A stretch of DNA of 64,000 nucleotides, taken from IMG/VR virus record IMGVR_UViG_3300009285_011187; one strand, 5' to 3'. The notes below the pieces were generated by a model. It saw only the letters and a program-made list of their open reading frames with translations, was not told the origin of the DNA and searched no databases. This document shows, in pieces, positions 20,621 through 29,654 of this stretch. The position numbers were made by a program, and so were the translations under genes. Within the stretch, counting starts at the first letter, position 1; every line of letters begins with the position of its first letter. Source of the DNA: an uncultured virus (IMG/VR IMGVR_UViG_3300009285_011187). Taxonomy: Duplodnaviria > Heunggongvirae > Uroviricota > Caudoviricetes.

Positions 20621-22252
20621 TTGTCTAATAAATTCAATAATAAGGAAACCCGTATATTTGGACCACCAGGAACTGGCAAGACAACTTACCTGGCTCGTCA
20701 GATCGAGTTAGCCGCAGAAAAGTATGGTCCGGAGAATGTGATTGTAGCTTCATTCACTAAAGCAGCAGCTGTGGAACTCAATATGAGGCGCCTGTCTATC
20801 CCACGCGACAATATGGGCACATTGCATGCGCTGTGCTATCGGGCTATGGGCTCACCACCGATCGCCGAAAAGCATGCTGCTGAATTTAATGAAGTATATC
20901 CTCAGTTCGCTATCTCTGAAGATACCGGCAACGTGTTTGACGAAATGGCCGCCGATGCCTCATATAATACAGATGGCGATGAGTTTCTGAGACAGTATAA
21001 TCTGCAACGGGCTAAGTGCTTGCCACGCGATTCTATGCATCCGCTGGTAGTTAAATTCGCCCATGATTGGGAACGATGGAAGACCAAGAACGATTATGTC
21101 GATTTTACGGACATGATTTATTATACCTGGCAAAATAAATTGCCGCCGCCTGGCGAGCCGCGGGTAGGGTTTTTCGACGAAAGTCAAGATTTCAGTGCTC
21201 TGGAATTGGCATTGGTCAGACAATGGGCCAATTATCTGGAGTATATCTTGATTGCGGGAGATGATGATCAGTGCATTTATCCTCATCGCGGAGCCTCGCC
21301 TGATGCCTTTTTGAATCCGCCAGTTTCGGTCGAGCAAAAGCGCGTGCTTCGTCAATCGTATAGACTGCCGCGACGCATTCATGCATATGCTGAAAAATGG
21401 ATTAAGCAGGTAAAGTTTCGGGAAACTAAAGAATACAAACCAAGAGACGAGGAAGGCCAGGTTGAAGCAGGATATGGTCTCGATCTTAGGCAAACGGAAC
21501 ATATTATTGAAACTGCGGATGAGTATGCCAATGCCGGTAAAACAATCATGATTCTGGCATCATGTAAGTATATGCTGATACCTTTGATCGCGGCATTGCG
21601 GCGCCATGGTATACCGTTCCATAATCCCTACCGGCCGAATAAGGGTGACTGGAATCCATTGGGCAATTTTTTCGGATCCAGAAAAGGCACAATTAGTACC
21701 AGGGAACGACTACTGGCATTTTTGAACAAACCGGACAATGGAACAAACTTCTGGTCTTTTGATAAGTTGGACATGTGGCTGGATATGATGAAATCCACTG
21801 CTGTATTTAAGAAAGACATGAAAAAGGAGTATGAGCAAGCCAGGGACAGATTCGGCAATTTTCAGTATGAAGGGGATCCGGAATTTTATAAGAAAATTTT
21901 TACGGAAATAGCACTGCAGCGGGCGACTGAAAGAGATTTGCCATGGTTCAAGGAATCGTTGTTGGCAGCCAGAAAGAAAGCTATCGAATATCCGTTGTCA
22001 GTTTACAGAAAGCGAGGTATTGGTGCGCTTTCGGAACGGCCGCGTATAACGATAGGCACAATTCACAGTACCAAGGGCGGCGAGCATGATATCGTGATGC
22101 TTTTTCCTGATTTGTCAGTAGCCGGCTTTAATGAATATCGCAGTCAGAATCGCGATCCGGTTATTAGAACTTTTTATGTCGGCATGACCCGGGCTAAGGA
22201 AACGCTGCTTCTCTGTAAACCGATGTCTAACTTGGCTGTGAGGTATATATGA
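20621..22252 (+). CDS. UvrD/Rep-like SF1 helicase
   Basis: GPPGTGKT, FDESQD, GDDDQCIY, QSYRLP, TIHSTKGGE, YVGMTRAK. Confidence 0.9.
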   Translation: MSNKFNNKETRIFGPPGTGKTTYLARQIELAAEKYGPENVIVASFTKAAAVELNMRRLSIPRDNMGTLHALCYRAMGSPPIAEKHAAEFNEVYPQFAISEDTGNVFDEMAADASYNTDGDEFLRQYNLQRAKCLPRDSMHPLVVKFAHDWERWKTKNDYVDFTDMIYYTWQNKLPPPGEPRVGFFDESQDFSALELALVRQWANYLEYILIAGDDDQCIYPHRGASPDAFLNPPVSVEQKRVLRQSYRLPRRIHAYAEKWIKQVKFRETKEYKPRDEEGQVEAGYGLDLRQTEHIIETADEYANAGKTIMILASCKYMLIPLIAALRRHGIPFHNPYRPNKGDWNPLGNFFGSRKGTISTRERLLAFLNKPDNGTNFWSFDKLDMWLDMMKSTAVFKKDMKKEYEQARDRFGNFQYEGDPEFYKKIFTEIALQRATERDLPWFKESLLAARKKAIEYPLSVYRKRGIGALSERPRITIGTIHSTKGGEHDIVMLFPDLSVAGFNEYRSQNRDPVIRTFYVGMTRAKETLLLCKPMSNLAVRYI

Positions 22253-22602
22253 TCAGAAAACTTTATCAACCGGAAGGATCGAATCTTTGCGGCCAGACTT
22301 GCGTTGCCATGATTGCCGGCGTGACGATAGATGAAGCGTGCACAGCTGTTGGTCATCGGCATAGTACAAATGCCAGAGCACTGTACAGGGGAATGGAAAA
22401 TTTGGGCATTATTTACAATCCAACGAAACGGATCAATGGCGTAAGATCGAATTGTTTTGTACCGAGTTGCTGCATTGCCAGAGTACATTATAAATTGGGA
22501 AAAAGAACTCATTGGGTTGTGATCTGGGATAATGATATTTACGATCCGATTAAAGATAATTCAGCTTGGCGAGTTACTTCTTATATCGAGATACTGAAAT
22601 GA
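22249..22602 (+). CDS. peptidase C39-like (papain-fold) protein
   Basis: Q...CGQTCVAMIAG ... HWVV ... YDP catalytic pattern. Confidence 0.65.
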   Translation: MIRKLYQPEGSNLCGQTCVAMIAGVTIDEACTAVGHRHSTNARALYRGMENLGIIYNPTKRINGVRSNCFVPSCCIARVHYKLGKRTHWVVIWDNDIYDPIKDNSAWRVTSYIEILK

Positions 22603-22937
22603 CGTTCAAGCCAATAAAAATCAAAAAGCCTAAACCTTATGTGCCGCTGGAGTCGACGCGCACAAGGCAGGTTCTGGATTTTTTGAACAATATTCCCGGG
22701 TGTAAGGCCCAAAAGCGGCATCAATCTGGTTTCGGCAAAAGTGGCGAGCCAGACATTGTATTCTGTTTGTGTGGCCGACACGGCGAGATCGAGATGAAAC
22801 GGGCGGGTAAGGAGCCAAGCAAACTGCAGCTAGTCCGATTGGCAGAATGGGAAAAAGTTGGTGCCATTGTTGGACGCCGAATAACCTGCGTCGACGATGT
22901 CAAGCAGATGTTTGAAGATTATGGGGTAAAAATATGA
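22599..22937 (+). CDS. VRR-NUC family nuclease
   Basis: GEPDIV...EIEMKR..KEPSKLQ (PD-(D/E)xK). Confidence 0.75.
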   Translation: MTFKPIKIKKPKPYVPLESTRTRQVLDFLNNIPGCKAQKRHQSGFGKSGEPDIVFCLCGRHGEIEMKRAGKEPSKLQLVRLAEWEKVGAIVGRRITCVDDVKQMFEDYGVKI

Positions 22938-23112
22938 TTAATATCTCCTTGCAAGATACGGGCTTTGGTAAGAGTCTTCGTATTAATGATGATAAGTTGT
23001 TTTTAAATGTTTTTATACCTTATGAAAATTTGTGCAATATGAATCTTATTGAATTTACTGAAAATATTATAGGTAAGTTAAAAACATTAAACTCTTCTTT
23101 GAAGCGTTGTCT

Positions 23113-23286
23113 ATGAGCGAACGAGAAAGACTGGAAAATGCCAATGTCCGCGGCAAAAAAGATTACTGGAATGGCGTTGCTTACGAAGATTGCCCGCTGC
23201 GCGCCGGTGACTCGCGGGTAATGTGGAAACTTGGCTGGCAGGCGGCGCAAAAAGAAGATAAGTTGATAAAAAAAAGGAGGAAGTAA
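23113..23286 (+). CDS. ribosome modulation factor (Rmf)-like small protein
   Basis: 57-aa ORF absent from the ORF track: RGKKDYWNG....CP.....RVMWKLGWQAA matches the Rmf pattern RG..AG..G....CP....R..W..GW. Confidence 0.5.
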   Translation: MSERERLENANVRGKKDYWNGVAYEDCPLRAGDSRVMWKLGWQAAQKEDKLIKKRRK

Positions 23287-23287
23287 A

Positions 23288-23920
23288 ATGGCAAGGAAAC
23301 AAGGAAGCGGGGAAGAAAAACAGTTGCGGCCTGCGATCGAACAAAAAGATTTTGTTATCAAGTTAACAAACGACATGCTCGGCACGGTAACTAAAGACCC
23401 GGAAGTCTACAAAACCTACATTGCCAGCAAGCAGATTGAGACAAGGGCAGTTGAAGACCTGACCGACGACGAGACGATCACGGTTGAAAAGATCGAGGAA
23501 AGGGGGTGGACCGGATTTCACAAAGATGAAAACACCAATGAGCTCTTTATCTACAACTACATGATTAAGGGGTTCCTGAAGCATGCCGGCAATGTTCTGA
23601 AGGCTGTCGTCAAAATCAAGGCCCTCAGATCCAAACTTGATGATTTTGTTTTCATCCTACCAAGACGCATTTACCTTGGGCAATCAGAACCGGACGGTGT
23701 TCTGGAACGCCCGCTGCGCGTCATGACCATGCAGGGACCCCGGGTTTGCCTGGCCAGATCTGATTACATTAAGGCAGGTAAAGAGTTGGTCTTTACAATT
23801 AAGTTGTATCCGCATCCGGAGATTGACTGGGAGGTAATCAACCAATTATTGGCCTATGGCGAGGACATGGGACTCGGTCAATTCCGGAATGGCAGCTATG
23901 GAACCTTCATTAGAGCGTAA
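23288..23920 (+). CDS. stand-alone Cas7/RAMP-like protein (Vipr-like)
   Basis: N-terminal strand IKLTNDMLGT, IYNYMIKGFLK helix, ERPLR..T.QGPRV.LARSD thumb hairpin, C-terminal G-rich loop YGEDMGLGQFRNGSYGTF; AAGGAGG RBS. Confidence 0.75.
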   Translation: MARKQGSGEEKQLRPAIEQKDFVIKLTNDMLGTVTKDPEVYKTYIASKQIETRAVEDLTDDETITVEKIEERGWTGFHKDENTNELFIYNYMIKGFLKHAGNVLKAVVKIKALRSKLDDFVFILPRRIYLGQSEPDGVLERPLRVMTMQGPRVCLARSDYIKAGKELVFTIKLYPHPEIDWEVINQLLAYGEDMGLGQFRNGSYGTFIRA

Positions 23921-24359
23921 CGTTATGGCATTGTACTGTAAAGCAAGGCGAGGGTAGCGTAAAGTGTGGTAAAGTTATGGCAGGGTATAGCGCCGCAGAG
24001 TATTGGCAGGATGAGGTGAAGTAACGGCATAGTGTGTTATAGTACAGGTGGCATCGGAATAGTTTGGTACAGACAGGTAAAGTCTCGGTACAGCACCGTC
24101 CCGCAGGGTATGGCATCGGTAAAGTGTGCCTTTGTTCAGTAAAGTGATGCAATGGTTCGGTTCAGCAAAGTCAGCAGAGTAATGTTCTGGCATATTGCGG
24201 CGAAGCGTTGGCACGGTATAGTTTGACGAAGTAGAGGTAGTGTACTGTTCTCTGACGTTTAGTTCAGGCATAGTGTAGTAATGTTCAGCAATAGCGCAGT
24301 CTGGTAAAGCATTGCACTGGCGTTGTAGTGAAATGTGATGCGACGCAAGGCAATGGCTT
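23921..24359 (+). ncRNA. pentameric NGY-NN repeat array, candidate guide-RNA array of the adjacent RAMP protein
   Basis: manual parse gives ~85 five-nt units, ~75 of form NGY-NN, in 16 blocks each opened by one extra base and usually GGY; starts directly after the RAMP stop codon. Confidence 0.75.
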
Positions 24360-24386
24360 GACAAGGACGAACAGTAATGCTAAAAT
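24358..24386 (+). promoter_or_regulatory. sigma70-type promoter at the array end
   Basis: TTGACA-17 nt-TAAAAT with extended -10 TG. Confidence 0.65.
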
Positions 24387-24525: not shown

Positions 24526-24708
24526 GTGACCGAGAAAAAGCCAAGATACGTAAAAAAAACCTTCAAGCCCAGAAAGTGTGAGTGTGGGTGCGGTGAAAAA
24601 TTTACGCCTGCAAGAGAGTGGCAACGATTCGTTGATAACTATCATCGTATGCAGAACTGGAGAAAAAATCATCCAGATTACATGAAAAAGCATGTCGTTA
24701 ACGAATAG
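24526..24708 (+). CDS. small basic Cys-containing protein
   Basis: AGGAG RBS; RKCECGCGEKF...QRF. Confidence 0.5.
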   Translation: MTEKKPRYVKKTFKPRKCECGCGEKFTPAREWQRFVDNYHRMQNWRKNHPDYMKKHVVNE

Positions 24709-25387
24709 GCCGCATTAATTCCGCAAAGATTCTCTTTTCTTTCAGCATATCCGGCCGCGGCGAACCTGCGTCCCTCATGCTGCCCCCTACCAAATGCCTG
24801 ATCGGGTTAGTTGTCATCTTGTACCAGGGCTGGCAATGATGAAAGATCCAGTCGTCGCCGCAAAACGTTTTTAATTTATTCGGGATTGCCGGCATTTTTT
24901 TAGCTATCTCGGCTCTGATACTAAAAGCCCATCCTTCCCGCTTGGCCATCTGTTTTAAGTACCCGAAAAACGCATTATGCAGGACCAAATGGCTCGTTGT
25001 AACATGTGGACAGAGGACGGCAGCGTGTTTAGCGTACGTCATGCTGGCGCCCAGGACAAGAAAGAAATTTTGCGTGATGATAATGTCGTCGTTCAGGATC
25101 GAAATAATGTCCATGCCGGCCTCGATCATGCATCGAATGCCATACATCCAGGACGCATTGACACCCATAATCTCTTTAGGAGTGTGTACAACAACGGGCA
25201 AATCACTGCGTTCACCGGACCATGACTGGAAATCAATCGTTTTCCCGGCCAGGATTCTCGATAAAGAATTGTCGATATTGTTCATAATCAGTATTTTATC
25301 CGGCGTTTGACTTTGTTCCTCGAATTGCTTCATAAGATTGTACAGGTAGTCTTTCTTGATTACCGGTATCACAACTCCGATTTTCAT
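24698..25387 (-). CDS. glycosyltransferase family 2 (GT-A fold)
   Basis: IGVVIPV, GVNASW..G, ILNDD, FCGDDW. Confidence 0.75.
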   Translation of the reverse strand: MKIGVVIPVIKKDYLYNLMKQFEEQSQTPDKILIMNNIDNSLSRILAGKTIDFQSWSGERSDLPVVVHTPKEIMGVNASWMYGIRCMIEAGMDIISILNDDIIITQNFFLVLGASMTYAKHAAVLCPHVTTSHLVLHNAFFGYLKQMAKREGWAFSIRAEIAKKMPAIPNKLKTFCGDDWIFHHCQPWYKMTTNPIRHLVGGSMRDAGSPRPDMLKEKRIFAELMRPIR

Positions 25388-25397
25388 AAGATATCCT

Positions 25398-25675
25398 TTA
25401 TCTGCACCGTTTCCACACGCCGCGGATTAGATGACCGTGCCAGTTGAGTTGAACGTTTGATTGATCTAACACGGTTACGTTGATGCTTGGTTTGACGGTT
25501 ATGTACCGTCCTAGTGTTCCTGGACAGTACAGCCATCCTGTCCGCAGTGGATAGCGCCGTGGACGCCGGTCGGAACACAGACTTCCCATCTCGTATCCGA
25601 AGATTTTAGATACTCGCCCGGCTGCAATATCGGGACATGGCCATCGGCGTCCGGGTATATTCTTTTGCCCTGCAT
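25398..25675 (-). pseudogene. disrupted small protein (DUF6527-like)
   Basis: TVQEH*DGT then a 1-nt frameshift into ITVKPSI...WHGHLIRGVWK. Confidence 0.45.
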
Positions 25676-25683
25676 GGGATTTT

Positions 25684-26643
25684 CTATGGTTGCCATTGTT
25701 TAATCCAGTCTTCTATCGAAATTACCTGTTTCGCCTCTATCATTTTGCGATGTTTCCACACAGACATGGCCTGATCAACCGAGTTCCATATAGCCGTCTT
25801 CTGGGGTAGGCCGCCCTTGATGTTCATACAATATTTCAGGGCCATGTCGCGGCCGCCGTAAATGTATGTGGAGATAGTGCGGTTTCTATGAAAGTCGTCG
25901 TAATTCCAGTGATAGCCGCGGGGCGCTGCGTAGTGGTACAGCGGCTGACTGTGGAATACATTGATTGATTTACCGAGTATGGCAAGCGTGAAATTAATAA
26001 AATTCTCGCCGCCGCCGTAGATTCCCAGTTCCCGGGGCCAGCCGCCAATTTCATCGTAGAGCGAACGCCGCATCATCATGCCGCAGGTGGACATACAGGG
26101 TACGCGAAGGTGGCCCGGGTCGCCAGGATGCTGTGTCCGGTACTTTGTAAACTTATAATGTACAACTGCTGTTTCCGGTTCTATGTGCAATTTATACATC
26201 AGCTCGTTTCCAGGAGTATCCATAAAATAGGAAAGCGGCATATGAAGCGTGCCGTCAATAAAGTTGTCGAGGTAATAATTAAATGCCGGCACGATGGACC
26301 CCTGAGAAGGAAGACAGTGAGCGTCGCAGAAAAACAGAACATCGCCGGTCGAATTTTCAACGCCCAGGTTCTTTGCTTGCCAGTGAGAAAGCTTATCCTT
26401 GTACTCGAGATATTTGTACCAGGGCCGCTTGCCGCTGGCAAAACTGGCAAGGTATTTGCCGCCTGCATCGGGCTGCAAATTTTTTTCGGTCAACAACTGA
26501 TGCTCGAGTTCAGGACAAGTGTTATCAATCGCAATAATTTCAAAATCACAGCGATCGCGCAATTCTAGATAAAGAGCATGAACGGTGAATGCAGCTTGAG
26601 GATGTTCTTGAGCAAATGGAATAATGCACGATAGTTTAGGCAT
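25684..26643 (-). CDS. glycosyltransferase family 2 (ppGalNAcT-like motifs)
   Basis: LSCIIP, AKNLGVENSTGDVLFFCDAH, YDEIGGW...IYGGGE. Confidence 0.8.
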   Translation of the reverse strand: MPKLSCIIPFAQEHPQAAFTVHALYLELRDRCDFEIIAIDNTCPELEHQLLTEKNLQPDAGGKYLASFASGKRPWYKYLEYKDKLSHWQAKNLGVENSTGDVLFFCDAHCLPSQGSIVPAFNYYLDNFIDGTLHMPLSYFMDTPGNELMYKLHIEPETAVVHYKFTKYRTQHPGDPGHLRVPCMSTCGMMMRRSLYDEIGGWPRELGIYGGGENFINFTLAILGKSINVFHSQPLYHYAAPRGYHWNYDDFHRNRTISTYIYGGRDMALKYCMNIKGGLPQKTAIWNSVDQAMSVWKHRKMIEAKQVISIEDWIKQWQP

Positions 26644-27430
26644 GGATAGACCCTTTCTTTAATGCTTCGGCATAAGATGGCGACAGGAACTGCTTATCAG
26701 ACCGCAATGGATACTGCTTAAGGCTTTCGCTGAACATTAGATGATTCGCTTCCGAGAAGTGCATTTCATTTGTTCCGTAACGCACGCCAGCGTAACTGAG
26801 GCGCAGTCTTCCACAAAACTGGCAAAAAAGACCGAGCCGCGGGTTCTTTAAAGTGCCTTCCAGCGTGTCGCCGCCAAAGCCGAATACTCTGTCGATGCCT
26901 CCTGCCATGGAGCAATGATACCAGCCGTTGATTGTAAGTTGCAATCCGCAGCGCATCTGCTGACCACAGCCGCGGGCGTAGTCGTGTTCGGCGAATTCGG
27001 GAAAGTCGCGCGGAGCAATATTAACGGTCCAGAATCTCGACGGTCGGGCTCCGACGCCCGTGGCGATGTTTTTAGCGGCATGGCGCACCTGGATATTTTG
27101 AGTGCGGAAGCAAATGTCGTAAAGAATCGCTTTGGTTTTTTCCGAGTGGCAGTTGGAAACCAGCGTGCCCTGACATTTGGGATTCTTGCGGCAGTAGGCG
27201 GCGATGATATCGATGAATTCATTAAGTTGTGGATGCAATGTCGGCTCGCCGCCCATAATGTAAATTGCGTTCCAGGCATGTCGCGTTCCGTAAAGCTGTT
27301 TTTCAAAAAATTCGGGCGTCATGTCGGGACCAGGGGACAGGAGATCGCAGCGCCTGGTGCAGTTGGCACAGGCCAGGTTGCATTTCCAGGTAATATCCAA
27401 CTCGAAAACGTTGGTCCTAAATTTTCGCAC
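26636..27430 (-). CDS. radical SAM protein
   Basis: CNLACANC (CxxxCxxC), MGGEPTLHP, additional C-terminal Cys. Confidence 0.85.
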   Translation of the reverse strand: MRKFRTNVFELDITWKCNLACANCTRRCDLLSPGPDMTPEFFEKQLYGTRHAWNAIYIMGGEPTLHPQLNEFIDIIAAYCRKNPKCQGTLVSNCHSEKTKAILYDICFRTQNIQVRHAAKNIATGVGARPSRFWTVNIAPRDFPEFAEHDYARGCGQQMRCGLQLTINGWYHCSMAGGIDRVFGFGGDTLEGTLKNPRLGLFCQFCGRLRLSYAGVRYGTNEMHFSEANHLMFSESLKQYPLRSDKQFLSPSYAEALKKGSIHA

Positions 27431-27624
27431 GAATGATTTTCCTCCAGATGGCGGTCAGCGAGCAAATGGAGCAATAATTCCACAGATCAAGGCGTTCATG
27501 GATACGGTATTTCCAATATGGTGGACTTGCCGGCGATGAAAGTTCATTGATCCAGTCGCTGCATAGTTTTATATGGTCTTTCCACGTCCAGAAATAAAGG
27601 AATTCTTTTTTGCGTGCCCAGGGG

Positions 27625-28401
27625 CTAGTCAGGTTTAACGTATCCGACTCCTTTGTTATAAAGATCGACAAACTGTAAAAACGAACTATCGAACCCGTAG
27701 GCAATTGCCTTGACGTCTTTTGGCAGGCATTTACCGTCATAGCCACGTTTGCCGCGGTGCCAGGCTTCCAGATGGTTTGAGCCTACCCAGGGATGCCTGT
27801 ACATAAGATCGACGATTTGCGGCCAGTTGGCGTTACATTTTTGAGCCACATCAAACATGGCCTCAGCGAAAGTGACCTTAGTTGCAAAGAGACAGTTCAT
27901 GGCATACTTAAATAAAGAAGCGGTAGGAAGATCAACGATAAATTTACGTTCTTTAGGAAAGTTTTTAAAAAGCATCATTATCTGGTCAGCATAGTCACCT
28001 GCAGTGATAATGTAATATGGATTTTCGGCATCTTCCCACCAGCTGGATTCGGTCAGTGACTCCGGCATGAAATGGATTGGATAGTTATATTTTTCTTGGA
28101 ATATCTCGCAGGTTCCTGGTGGCACGGTTGACCTGATAATGATGTGGAAAGATTTTTCCTTTATGGCTGAAAGCCTGGAGACAGCCTCTTCAACGATCGA
28201 GGTATCACATTTTCCAGTTTCCGGATCTGCTGGAGTCGGTACGCAGATAAAAACGTATCCGCAGCTATTCATGCCCTCGTAATTGCAGTCAACAATCTTG
28301 GGATCGTAAAGAACAAGATCGAACTTCGGGTTAAAGTATTTTCTGAGCATTACTTCAGTAGCCTTGCCGACGATACCGTAACCGATGATTCCGATTTTCA
28401 T
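27625..28401 (-). CDS. UDP-glucose/GDP-mannose dehydrogenase family (short form)
   Basis: GYGIVG Rossmann motif, FICVPTP, IRSTVPPGT, KYAMN, GYDGKCLPKD. Confidence 0.85.
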   Translation of the reverse strand: MKIGIIGYGIVGKATEVMLRKYFNPKFDLVLYDPKIVDCNYEGMNSCGYVFICVPTPADPETGKCDTSIVEEAVSRLSAIKEKSFHIIIRSTVPPGTCEIFQEKYNYPIHFMPESLTESSWWEDAENPYYIITAGDYADQIMMLFKNFPKERKFIVDLPTASLFKYAMNCLFATKVTFAEAMFDVAQKCNANWPQIVDLMYRHPWVGSNHLEAWHRGKRGYDGKCLPKDVKAIAYGFDSSFLQFVDLYNKGVGYVKPD

Positions 28402-28708
28402 TTAATAAATCCTTTCTCTGTAAAGCGACCAAAAGCGATTTTCTGCATATCTTTTAAGTGATCCTGTCTGCTTGTCAAGTACCGGCACTACCGGATCCAT
28501 TTGACGGACGTAGACCGCAGTCCCATAATTGATTCATTAAGACCTGAGCTGCGGTCTTGGTAATGATAAATGTAGGTCTATGCACAGCATTTTCCGGCAT
28601 TGATTCCCAGGAGATACATGCACCACGAAATTTTTCATCCATGATGCACATCAATTCGATTTCCGGGCCCCATGGTGTTCTTTGCGCGTGAATCTTAATA
28701 TCAGACAT
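28398..28708 (-). pseudogene. frameshifted hypothetical phage protein
   Basis: LMNQLWDCGLRPSNGSGSAGT* continues in another frame as QDHLKDMQKIAFG up to a TGA overlapping the next start. Confidence 0.4.
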
Positions 28709-29654
28709 TATGATAGCTCCTATACCATCCAATGAATTTACTGATTCCGATTTCCACAGTTGTTGACGGGGAATAGCCGGTATATTGCTTGAGCTTTCGG
28801 TTAATGCCTTCTTTTGACCTAGCATCGCCGTACTGCATAGGCATGTCGATAATTTCCGGCCATGAACACTGGAGCGCATGAATGATATGGTAAACAACAT
28901 AACGCAGATAATCGGCACTACCCTTGCAAATATTGAAAATATCATACAGTGGCTCGTGGCGCATGAAGACCAGTCGATATAGCGCTTCGACAAAATTGTC
29001 GATATATGTCCAGTCTCTGTACTGCTCACCGGCACCATGCAGCTTGATCGGCGCACCGGTCAGGCAGGCCTCGACGAATTTCCAGATAGCCATATCCGGT
29101 CGGCCCCATGGTCCATAGACGGTAAACGGCCTGATCGTCAGCACTTTATTTTTGTGCGTTACAGCATGATTATAACAAAGAAATTCGCCCGATGCTTTTG
29201 ATGCGGCGTAAAGAGTAGCAGGCTTGGCGGTTGGCGAGTTTTCGCACACGCGCTCGATATCGGCATTGTAAACTGAAGACGAGGAGATGAAGACAAAAAG
29301 CCGTGCAGGCATGATTCGATTGAGTTCCAGCAAATGATGAGTGCCGGAAAGATTTGTTTCAATGTAGATGTTGGGATCCTCGAGACTGTAGCGCACGCCG
29401 GCCTGAGCAGCGAAGTGAACAACGATTTCGGGCTTGAAGTCAAACCATATTTGATCGCAGCAGTTGATGTTTGTCGCGGCGATATTTAGCTTGAAGTAAT
29501 CCATCCGTGCAACTTTTAACTCGGGATTATAGTAGCGATTAAAGTTATCGATACCCAGGACTGTATGGCCATGGGACTGCAATTTAGCGGAAAAGGCGCT
29601 GCCAATGAAACCTGCAGCTCCTGTGCATAGAATTCGACTCATACTTTTTCCCAT
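28701..29654 (-). CDS. NAD-dependent epimerase (UDP-glucuronate 4-epimerase-like)
   Basis: TGAAGFIG, HFAAQAGVRYS, SSSSVY, YAASK, FTVYGPWGRPDMA. Confidence 0.9.
   Translation of the reverse strand: MGKSMSRILCTGAAGFIGSAFSAKLQSHGHTVLGIDNFNRYYNPELKVARMDYFKLNIAATNINCCDQIWFDFKPEIVVHFAAQAGVRYSLEDPNIYIETNLSGTHHLLELNRIMPARLFVFISSSSVYNADIERVCENSPTAKPATLYAASKASGEFLCYNHAVTHKNKVLTIRPFTVYGPWGRPDMAIWKFVEACLTGAPIKLHGAGEQYRDWTYIDNFVEALYRLVFMRHEPLYDIFNICKGSADYLRYVVYHIIHALQCSWPEIIDMPMQYGDARSKEGINRKLKQYTGYSPSTTVEIGISKFIGWYRSYHNV

Follow-up and report, generated by a model that had tools for sequence, protein, structure and literature searches.

The window analysed here, a 64,000-nt stretch of an uncultured Caudoviricetes virus (IMG/VR record IMGVR_UViG_3300009285_011187), is a tailed-phage genome. 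Its minus strand carries the genes for terminase, portal, protease, major head, tape measure and tail, and its plus strand those for helicases and a primase-polymerase. Downstream of these replication genes is a 210-aa open-reading frame and, beginning one base after its stop codon, a tandem array of pentanucleotides. The names used below follow VIPR, a DNA silencer related to CRISPR whose first description dates from 2026 (10.64898/2026.04.26.720920). The runs containing the locus derive from groundwater and soil metagenomes, none of them an RNA run; contigs of four groundwater or soil runs were identical to the window wherever they overlapped it, and therefore supplied no strain variants for comparison. 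The features of the locus are:

23288..23920, plus strand: vipr, a 210-aa open-reading frame for a minimal Cas7-like RAMP (predicted fold and profile homology)
23921..24359, plus strand: very probable vrRNA array, 85 N-G-Y-N-N pentamer units grouped into 16 blocks, a one-base register slip marking off each
23926, 23952, 23978, 24004, 24025, 24055, 24086, 24117, 24153, 24188, 24209, 24235, 24266, 24292, 24318 and 24354, plus strand: block starts, where the slip creates GGY
24358..24386, plus strand: promoter-like site, TTGACA, 17 nt, TAAAAT with TG (extended -10), overlapping the last array unit

The promoter-like site matches the sigma-70-like consensus at 11 of 12 positions, but as shuffled sequences contain such sites just as often as this region does, the evidence for it is weak; it is a neighbour of the VIPR locus and probably serves the downstream 60-aa ORF (24526-24708). 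This ORF encodes a Cys-x-Cys-Gly-Cys-Gly motif, has no family match and is not conserved beside vipr in relatives. A 59-aa ORF just upstream of vipr (23107-23286) weakly resembles ribosome modulation factor, its PF04957 score of 20.5 bits (E 4.9e-4) staying below the cut-off of 27.9 bits. Following the VIPR locus, and convergent with it on the minus strand (24698-29654), are sugar-modification genes encoding a family-2 glycosyltransferase, a radical-SAM-like protein, a UDP-glucose dehydrogenase-like protein and a nucleotide-sugar epimerase, a block that is unusual as phage cargo and may act on DNA or on the cell surface. A UvrD-like helicase (20621-22252) and a PHROG-93 endonuclease (22566-22937) were each considered as accessory genes and rejected, since neither is conserved beside vipr in relatives. 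Across the neighbourhoods of 59 related loci vipr was the only conserved gene, so that no conserved accessory gene was found there, and Pfam and PHROG searches of the genes neighbouring the array detected no cas genes.

Periodicity and parse of the array

The array comprises 439 bases and is G-rich on the plus strand (G 141, T 116, A 114, C 68). A sequence-only reading of this DNA had described it as NGY-NN pentamers punctuated by +1 insertions, and had proposed positional entropy and autocorrelation against shuffled controls as a check; on that comparison the periodicity stood far above shuffled sequence. Same-base autocorrelation at lag 5 was 0.426 (z 7.3, against 500 mononucleotide shuffles), with further peaks at lags 21, 26, 31 and 36 (z 6.0, 8.2, 5.2 and 4.5, respectively), of which lag 26 exceeded lag 5 itself. 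The Fourier spectrum had a single sharp peak at 5.16 nt with a power of 15.3, compared with a mean maximum of 2.5 and a highest value of 4.4 among 200 shuffles, and showed no 3-nt peak. In a sliding 200-nt scan of the whole 64-kb window the top nine values all fell within 23801-24201 and the best value elsewhere was 3.5. Tandem Repeats Finder returned only a 9-nt, 2-copy row for the window.

An unsupervised Viterbi parse, seeded only with G at position 2 and a pyrimidine at position 3 and then re-estimated from the data, recovered 85 units with 15 one-base insertions and two 4-nt units; G occupied position 2 in 90% of the 85 units and C or T position 3 in 94%. The insertions, from 23952 through 24354, fell exactly on 15 of the block starts that the earlier reading had placed by hand. 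Complete blocks measured 26, 26, 26, 21, 30, 31, 31, 36, 35, 21, 26, 31, 26, 26 and 36 nt, hence the 5n+1 lengths described previously (mostly 21, 26, 31 or 36 nt) were present in 13 of 15, and the two 4-nt units sit inside the 30-nt and 35-nt blocks, which thus contain one more slip each. A recount returned the same GG opening in 15 of 16 blocks and the same lack of any identical pair of blocks. When boundaries were placed at random in the array, none of 200,000 trials gave every block a size of 4–7 units.

Two of the earlier figures needed adjustment. The pattern of G at position 2 together with C or T at position 3 stood, yet the count of about 75 units did not, with 71 of 83 full units carrying both in the earlier parse. 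Nor are positions 4 and 5 quite as free as had been claimed: position 4 is A in 54% of units (entropy 1.64 bits) and position 5 has an entropy of 1.88 bits, so each unit holds less information than two free bases. At position 1, G occurs only at block starts, which makes the array repeat one of a ‘related consensus’ kind as opposed to GGY/NN. An Rfam scan of the array found no family at E ≤ 1 other than a chance miRNA row (E 0.91), and the array RNA folded more poorly than 95 of 100 shuffles (z +1.5), weak folding being expected of a protein-coated single strand.

The Vipr protein and its conserved association with pentamer arrays

The 210-aa ORF (23288-23920) had no Pfam or PHROG match. Its relatives are mostly 185–195 aa in length and align from about residue 13–24 of the ORF, so the true start may be a TTG codon at 23324, which has a purine-rich stretch ~10 nt upstream and would give a protein of 198 aa. 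An AlphaFold2 model computed from a 44-sequence alignment (pLDDT 89.3, pTM 0.83) comprises a beta-alpha-beta core (RRM core), a two-helix insertion at residues 38–63, a long beta-hairpin ‘thumb’ at 137–161 and a C-terminal glycine-rich loop (residues 195–207 in the ORF, with the G-loop at 195–205 in the model). The top of the Foldseek list for this model against the PDB consisted of CRISPR backbone RAMPs only, namely type VII Cas7, Csm3, Cmr4 and Cas7-11 (E 5e-7, probability 1.0, TM ~0.55). Searching PDB sequences with the Vipr profile recovered type VII Cas7 (E 1.8e-4), Csm4 (E 3e-3) and, weakly, the entry 36pp ‘SUSP1 Vipr protein’ (E 0.27), these sequence matches running through the G-loop.

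The backbones of CRISPR class 1 systems (Csm3/Cmr4, type VII Cas7, Cas7-11) form a filament on the guide RNA with periodic base flipping, at 6 nt per subunit and with a crRNA taken from a repeat-spacer array. They are the best structural matches of Vipr here, with the RAMP fold, thumb and G-loop in common, whereas CRISPR-Cas loci have ~25–40-nt repeats with spacers and cas genes, neither of which was found beside this array with its 5-nt period.

A closer comparison is offered by the VIPR systems themselves. The preprint describes Vipr as a minimal RAMP of ~20 kDa that binds vrRNAs of 9–16 YNNGG repeats, the NN bases of which pair with double-stranded DNA whilst every third target base is skipped, and gives rival phages and satellites as the natural targets; it distinguishes seven types, with NNNGG, YNNNG and NNNNG as repeat variants, and among its layout variants the legend of fig. 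S18 lists ‘staggered arrays with overlapping vrRNAs’ (10.64898/2026.04.26.720920). In the SUSP1 filament, as described in a companion preprint, there is one Vipr protomer per pentamer and two neighbouring protomers jointly hold G1, G2 and Y3, with six protomers per turn in the free form and five on DNA (10.64898/2026.04.26.720927). Our periodicity scan also located the VIPR locus of Escherichia phage SUSP1, where strict GGT/GGC pentamers, tails, vipr and a second gene were present; the isolated SUSP1 vrRNA measured 5.0 nt per unit and a longer segment across the tails 5.07.

Direct BLASTP of the 210-aa protein against SUSP1 Vipr was not significant (E 1.2). Alignment of the two families by hhalign (44 sequences here, 34 for SUSP1 Vipr) was full-length, covering 176 columns with a probability of 95.3% and an E-value of 2.1e-8, and the G-loops aligned residue by residue, SUSP1 D177-W178-R179 corresponding to Q198-F199-R200 here. 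In SUSP1 Vipr, H17 and D177 are the residues reported to read G1 (10.64898/2026.04.26.720927); in this alignment, at 15% identity, the H17 stretch falls opposite a 5-residue gap and D177 opposite a nearly invariant Q198. Absence of both residues, to the extent that an alignment at that identity can be followed, would tentatively fit the free first position of the inner units.

Shared with SUSP1 type II are the ~20 kDa minimal RAMP with its glycine-rich loop and thumb, the viral context and a RAMP gene adjoined, on its own strand, by tandem pentamers in which a G-Y core is fixed and other bases vary. The SUSP1 type has strict GGY/NN units with a period of exactly 5.0, vrRNAs of 12–15 units, a conserved tail of ~40 nt on each and an accessory gene (Vap1). 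Here, in contrast, only G-Y is fixed within blocks, an extra G recurs every 4–7 units, blocks hold 4–7 units as against the 9–16 repeats of SUSP1 vrRNAs, and neither a conserved tail nor an accessory gene was found. The three related array ends that we compared contained no conserved 3′ tail, and arrays continued without tails. As no conserved structured 3′ tail and no vap1-like accessory gene were found, the system is not type II; judged by sequence, it is a Vipr relative of a kind other than that of SUSP1.

The pairing of gene and array is conserved. All ten viral loci with a Vipr homologue (50–68% identity) have an adjoining tract with a 5.1–5.3-nt period. Together with 11 loci on genome contigs and 51 on metagenome contigs, these ten yielded 44 non-redundant arrays with 2,862 units, and in 44 of 44 the array is on the vipr strand at 5.08–5.25 nt per unit. 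Related arrays range from 24 to 174 units. Most of the 44 lie directly downstream of vipr, whilst in four loci (L019, L020, L033 and L069) the sole detected array is upstream; another locus, L004, has a second small array upstream of vipr (2791-2930, 27 units). The upstream arrays of these five loci resemble the upstream vrRNA1 of SUSP1. The anatomy of the locus, the fold and homology of its protein and the conservation of the gene-array pair are established by these comparisons.

The family is both large and unannotated. A family search recovered 522 proteins at E ≤ 0.001, the best 120 of which are all ‘hypothetical’ or unnamed and without a Pfam domain, and an exhaustive search with Vipr gave 1,509 cluster representatives at E ≤ 0.001. 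One 150,430-bp viral contig carries the same vipr-array locus twice in inverted orientation (L009 and L010, at 58–65 kb and 86–92 kb), which could reflect either a true inverted duplication or a fault of assembly. The genome contigs (L012–L022) belong to metagenome-assembled genomes labelled WOR-3, Bacillota, Patescibacteria, Deltaproteobacteria, Christensenella and Limiplasma. Their homologues are probably phage or prophage DNA binned with those genomes, and on that basis the clade occurs in many habitats and perhaps in a wide range of hosts.

One-base slips across the clade

The slips are a conserved trait of the clade. In a parse-independent comparison of the spacers between successive G-Y pairs in the 44 arrays, the last base was G in 91% of the four-base spacers (n = 445) compared with 26% of the three-base spacers (n = 1,935), hence the extra base is a conserved G and not a random insertion. 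The first two bases of the four-base spacers are A in 55–57%, so the junction consensus of the clade reads GY-A-A-N-GGY, with the extra G every 4–7 units. The clade grammar is thus G + (G-Y-N-N-N)n, in which only G-Y is fixed within blocks. Inner blocks of 4–6 units make up 287 of 432 in the 44 arrays, with modes at 5 and 6; in the first 15 arrays they numbered 123 of 170 blocks, against 42 expected under random placement.

How the arrays evolve was compared among relatives, the sequence-only reading having suggested block gain and loss, and the outcome was mixed. Whole-block differences do occur: the arrays of L007 and L008 differ by one 26-nt block, and those of L012, L036 and L076 have some blocks in common whilst others differ as wholes. 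The net 26-nt difference between L043 and L044, on the other hand, is an indel inside blocks. Most differences between orthologous arrays are indels that preserve the grammar: among the gaps of at least 4 nt (19 non-independent pairs), 46 of 103 measured 5n+1 and 32 of 103 measured 5n. Of 296 ends of homologous segments (HSPs), 61 lay no more than 2 nt from a junction, a weak enrichment over the null of 17%. The variable positions turn over fast among relatives and the G-Y is retained. In two arrays the same run of variable dinucleotides recurs within one array (blocks 93 and 297 of L020, blocks 714 and 847 of L035), as if several modules aimed at one site.

Literature searches for this one-base slip grammar, the VIPR preprints included, found only the ‘staggered arrays’ named in the legend of the VIPR preprint, the supplements of which may contain more. 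Staggered and YNNNG arrays, compared through that legend, resemble those here in having repeats with one fixed G and a pyrimidine, and the staggered layout is probably the same thing as the one-base slips that we observe.

Identity of the system, its proposed mechanism and the meaning of the slips

We conclude with high confidence that the array at 23921-24359 is the vrRNA array of a phage-borne VIPR system with the upstream ORF as its Vipr effector; this confidence belongs to the identity of the system and is separate from the meaning of the slips. It is a real element of an already known kind, and the detail of most note is the conserved G punctuation in a clade without a tail or accessory gene. 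The proposal, made from the letters of the DNA, that variable dinucleotides in a conserved scaffold constitute guide information agrees with the published VIPR code and with the adjacent Vipr homologue, an agreement of homology and anatomy.

RNA binding, the pairing code and silencing are carried over to this locus from the VIPR preprints, and the mechanism would accordingly run as follows. The array would be transcribed together with vipr, since it begins one base past the vipr stop and nothing resembling a promoter or terminator was found between the two. Vipr protomers would bind the RNA as a single strand, one per pentamer, holding G2 and Y3 and exposing the variable bases, which, by analogy with SUSP1, would pair with the double-stranded DNA of a phage competitor or other mobile element, two bases paired and one skipped, and so silence it. 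A full GGY arises only where the extra conserved G shifts the register, every 4–7 units; because the GGY of SUSP1 is held jointly by two protomers, we infer that the filament is broken or bent at this 6-nt step. On that reading the array would consist of ~16 modules in a row, each about one helical turn long, the SUSP1 filament having five protomers per turn once bound to its target.

Target searches returned no candidate. The local search took 8-unit windows from 15 and then 44 arrays, with skips of 0–3, with 0 or 1 extra junction base and with a three-variable-base rule, and compared them with the window and the fetched related loci (210 kb, then 348 kb, arrays masked); only self-matches were found, and real guides did no better than shuffled ones in the 348 kb at skips 0, 1 and 2. 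With a skip of 1, for example, real guides gave 55 windows at 15/16 and one at 16/16, compared with 68 and one for shuffled guides. Viral contigs were scanned with three exact gapped seeds, whereas the preprint describes matches of 80% or more, and the matches occurred at chance level. The L020 seed (8 units) gave three matches, none of which extends, and the L035 seed (9 units) gave one, in which the skipped base falls on codon position 2 and which does not continue into the four further units of its block. The seed from block 24117 of the window (7 units) gave at least 116, with no standout extension among the matches listed at junction offsets of -1 to +3. Within the arrays, the variable dinucleotide with the strongest depletion is TA (42 against an expected 62.7), which is weakly informative, and in-frame stops across three variable bases showed no clear depletion (43 vs. 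56).

Several explanations of the array other than guide RNA were weighed. The RNA might bind the RAMP and yet guide nothing to DNA, serving instead as a scaffold, as a decoy soaking up the Vipr of a rival or as a regulator of the vipr mRNA, of which it would form the 3′ region. The empty target searches, the A bias of position 4 and the placement of the array on the vipr transcript are all in keeping with this, as are the decoy vrRNAs carried by the SUSP1 satellite according to a further preprint (10.64898/2026.10.15.759431); but fast turnover of the variable positions with the G-Y kept is the pattern expected of guides, Vipr is homologous to a protein shown to guide DNA binding, and arrays of 24–174 units hold more variety than a scaffold requires, so we regard a non-guide RNA as improbable. 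Less credible still is a signal at the DNA level, such as phased binding sites or intrinsically shaped DNA that marks an origin, a site of packaging or one bound by a nucleoid protein. Two periods of 5.16 nt make 10.3 bp, near the helical repeat of DNA, and replication genes lie upstream, yet the strands are strongly asymmetric (141 G against 68 C), the G-rich strand is the vipr coding strand in 44 of 44 arrays, separate one-base steps with a conserved G, and not smooth drift, account for the non-integer period, and the SUSP1 arrays, which are RNAs according to the preprint, have a period of exactly 5.0 (10.64898/2026.04.26.720920). The least likely of all is that the array is translated, an outcome which the sequence-only reading had named as one that would speak against it if the product were a conserved protein. 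The array is indeed crossed on the minus strand by two open frames, one of 129 aa (23975-24364) and one of 80 aa (23910-24152), but a 5-nt period cannot hold a codon frame, the spectrum lacks a 3-nt peak, neither ORF has a Pfam match, and antisense ORFs over the arrays cluster only among near-identical arrays (six loci). A TRAP-like triplet-plus-spacer RNA and a CsrB-like sponge were dropped in view of the RAMP fold and Vipr homology of the adjacent protein.

Within the VIPR reading, the meaning of the slips is more evenly balanced, and we give about an even chance that they mark boundaries of modules or guides. The junction has a G signal of its own, the block-size distribution is tight and relatives differ by whole blocks; weakening the boundary reading, homology ends fall barely more often at block edges and the L043/L044 indel lies inside blocks. 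A specific form of it, which we advance tentatively and as less than probable, is that the extra G is a dedicated stop/start that cuts the Vipr filament into one-turn mini-guides of 4–7 protomers, each reading 12–21 bp, so that this clade would rely on numerous short guides, either held together on a single transcript or released from it by cutting, and would evolve by gain and loss of 21–36-nt modules. The competing explanation leaves the VIPR system as it is and disputes only the slips: a few long vrRNAs, or one 440-nt RNA, would be read through as guides, an added base in roughly every turn serving as a hinge or relieving strain. The commonest blocks, of 5 or 6 units, equal the 5–6 protomers per turn of SUSP1 filaments, one block of 4–7 units specifies only 8–14 bases, which is little for unique targeting, and the L043/L044 indel and the sparse enrichment of homology breaks at junctions also favour it. 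Against such a hinge, block sizes of 4–7 and beyond fit a fixed helical geometry poorly, a junction with G in 91% and two A-rich bases before it looks like a signal, and whole blocks differ among L012, L036 and L076 and between L007 and L008; target scans found zero matches across junctions, but zero within blocks too. Reading through the slips is therefore, in our judgement, conceivable though on the unlikely side.

The sequence-only reading, working from raw sequence, had arrived at the logic of a guide-RNA class whose publication dates only from 2026. With this locus, a tailed phage from groundwater joins a very large Vipr clade (1,509 representative proteins) whose arrays follow a two-level grammar of pentamers and a conserved one-base punctuation every 4–7 units. 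If this punctuation is the published ‘staggered’ layout, the locus is one further example of it. If instead it marks guide boundaries, the guides of this clade would be much shorter than those of the studied systems, and mini-guides, if true, would be a different solution from the capped guides of 9–16 units characterised so far; such short guides would bear on the specificity that VIPR needs and on how its arrays gain guides.
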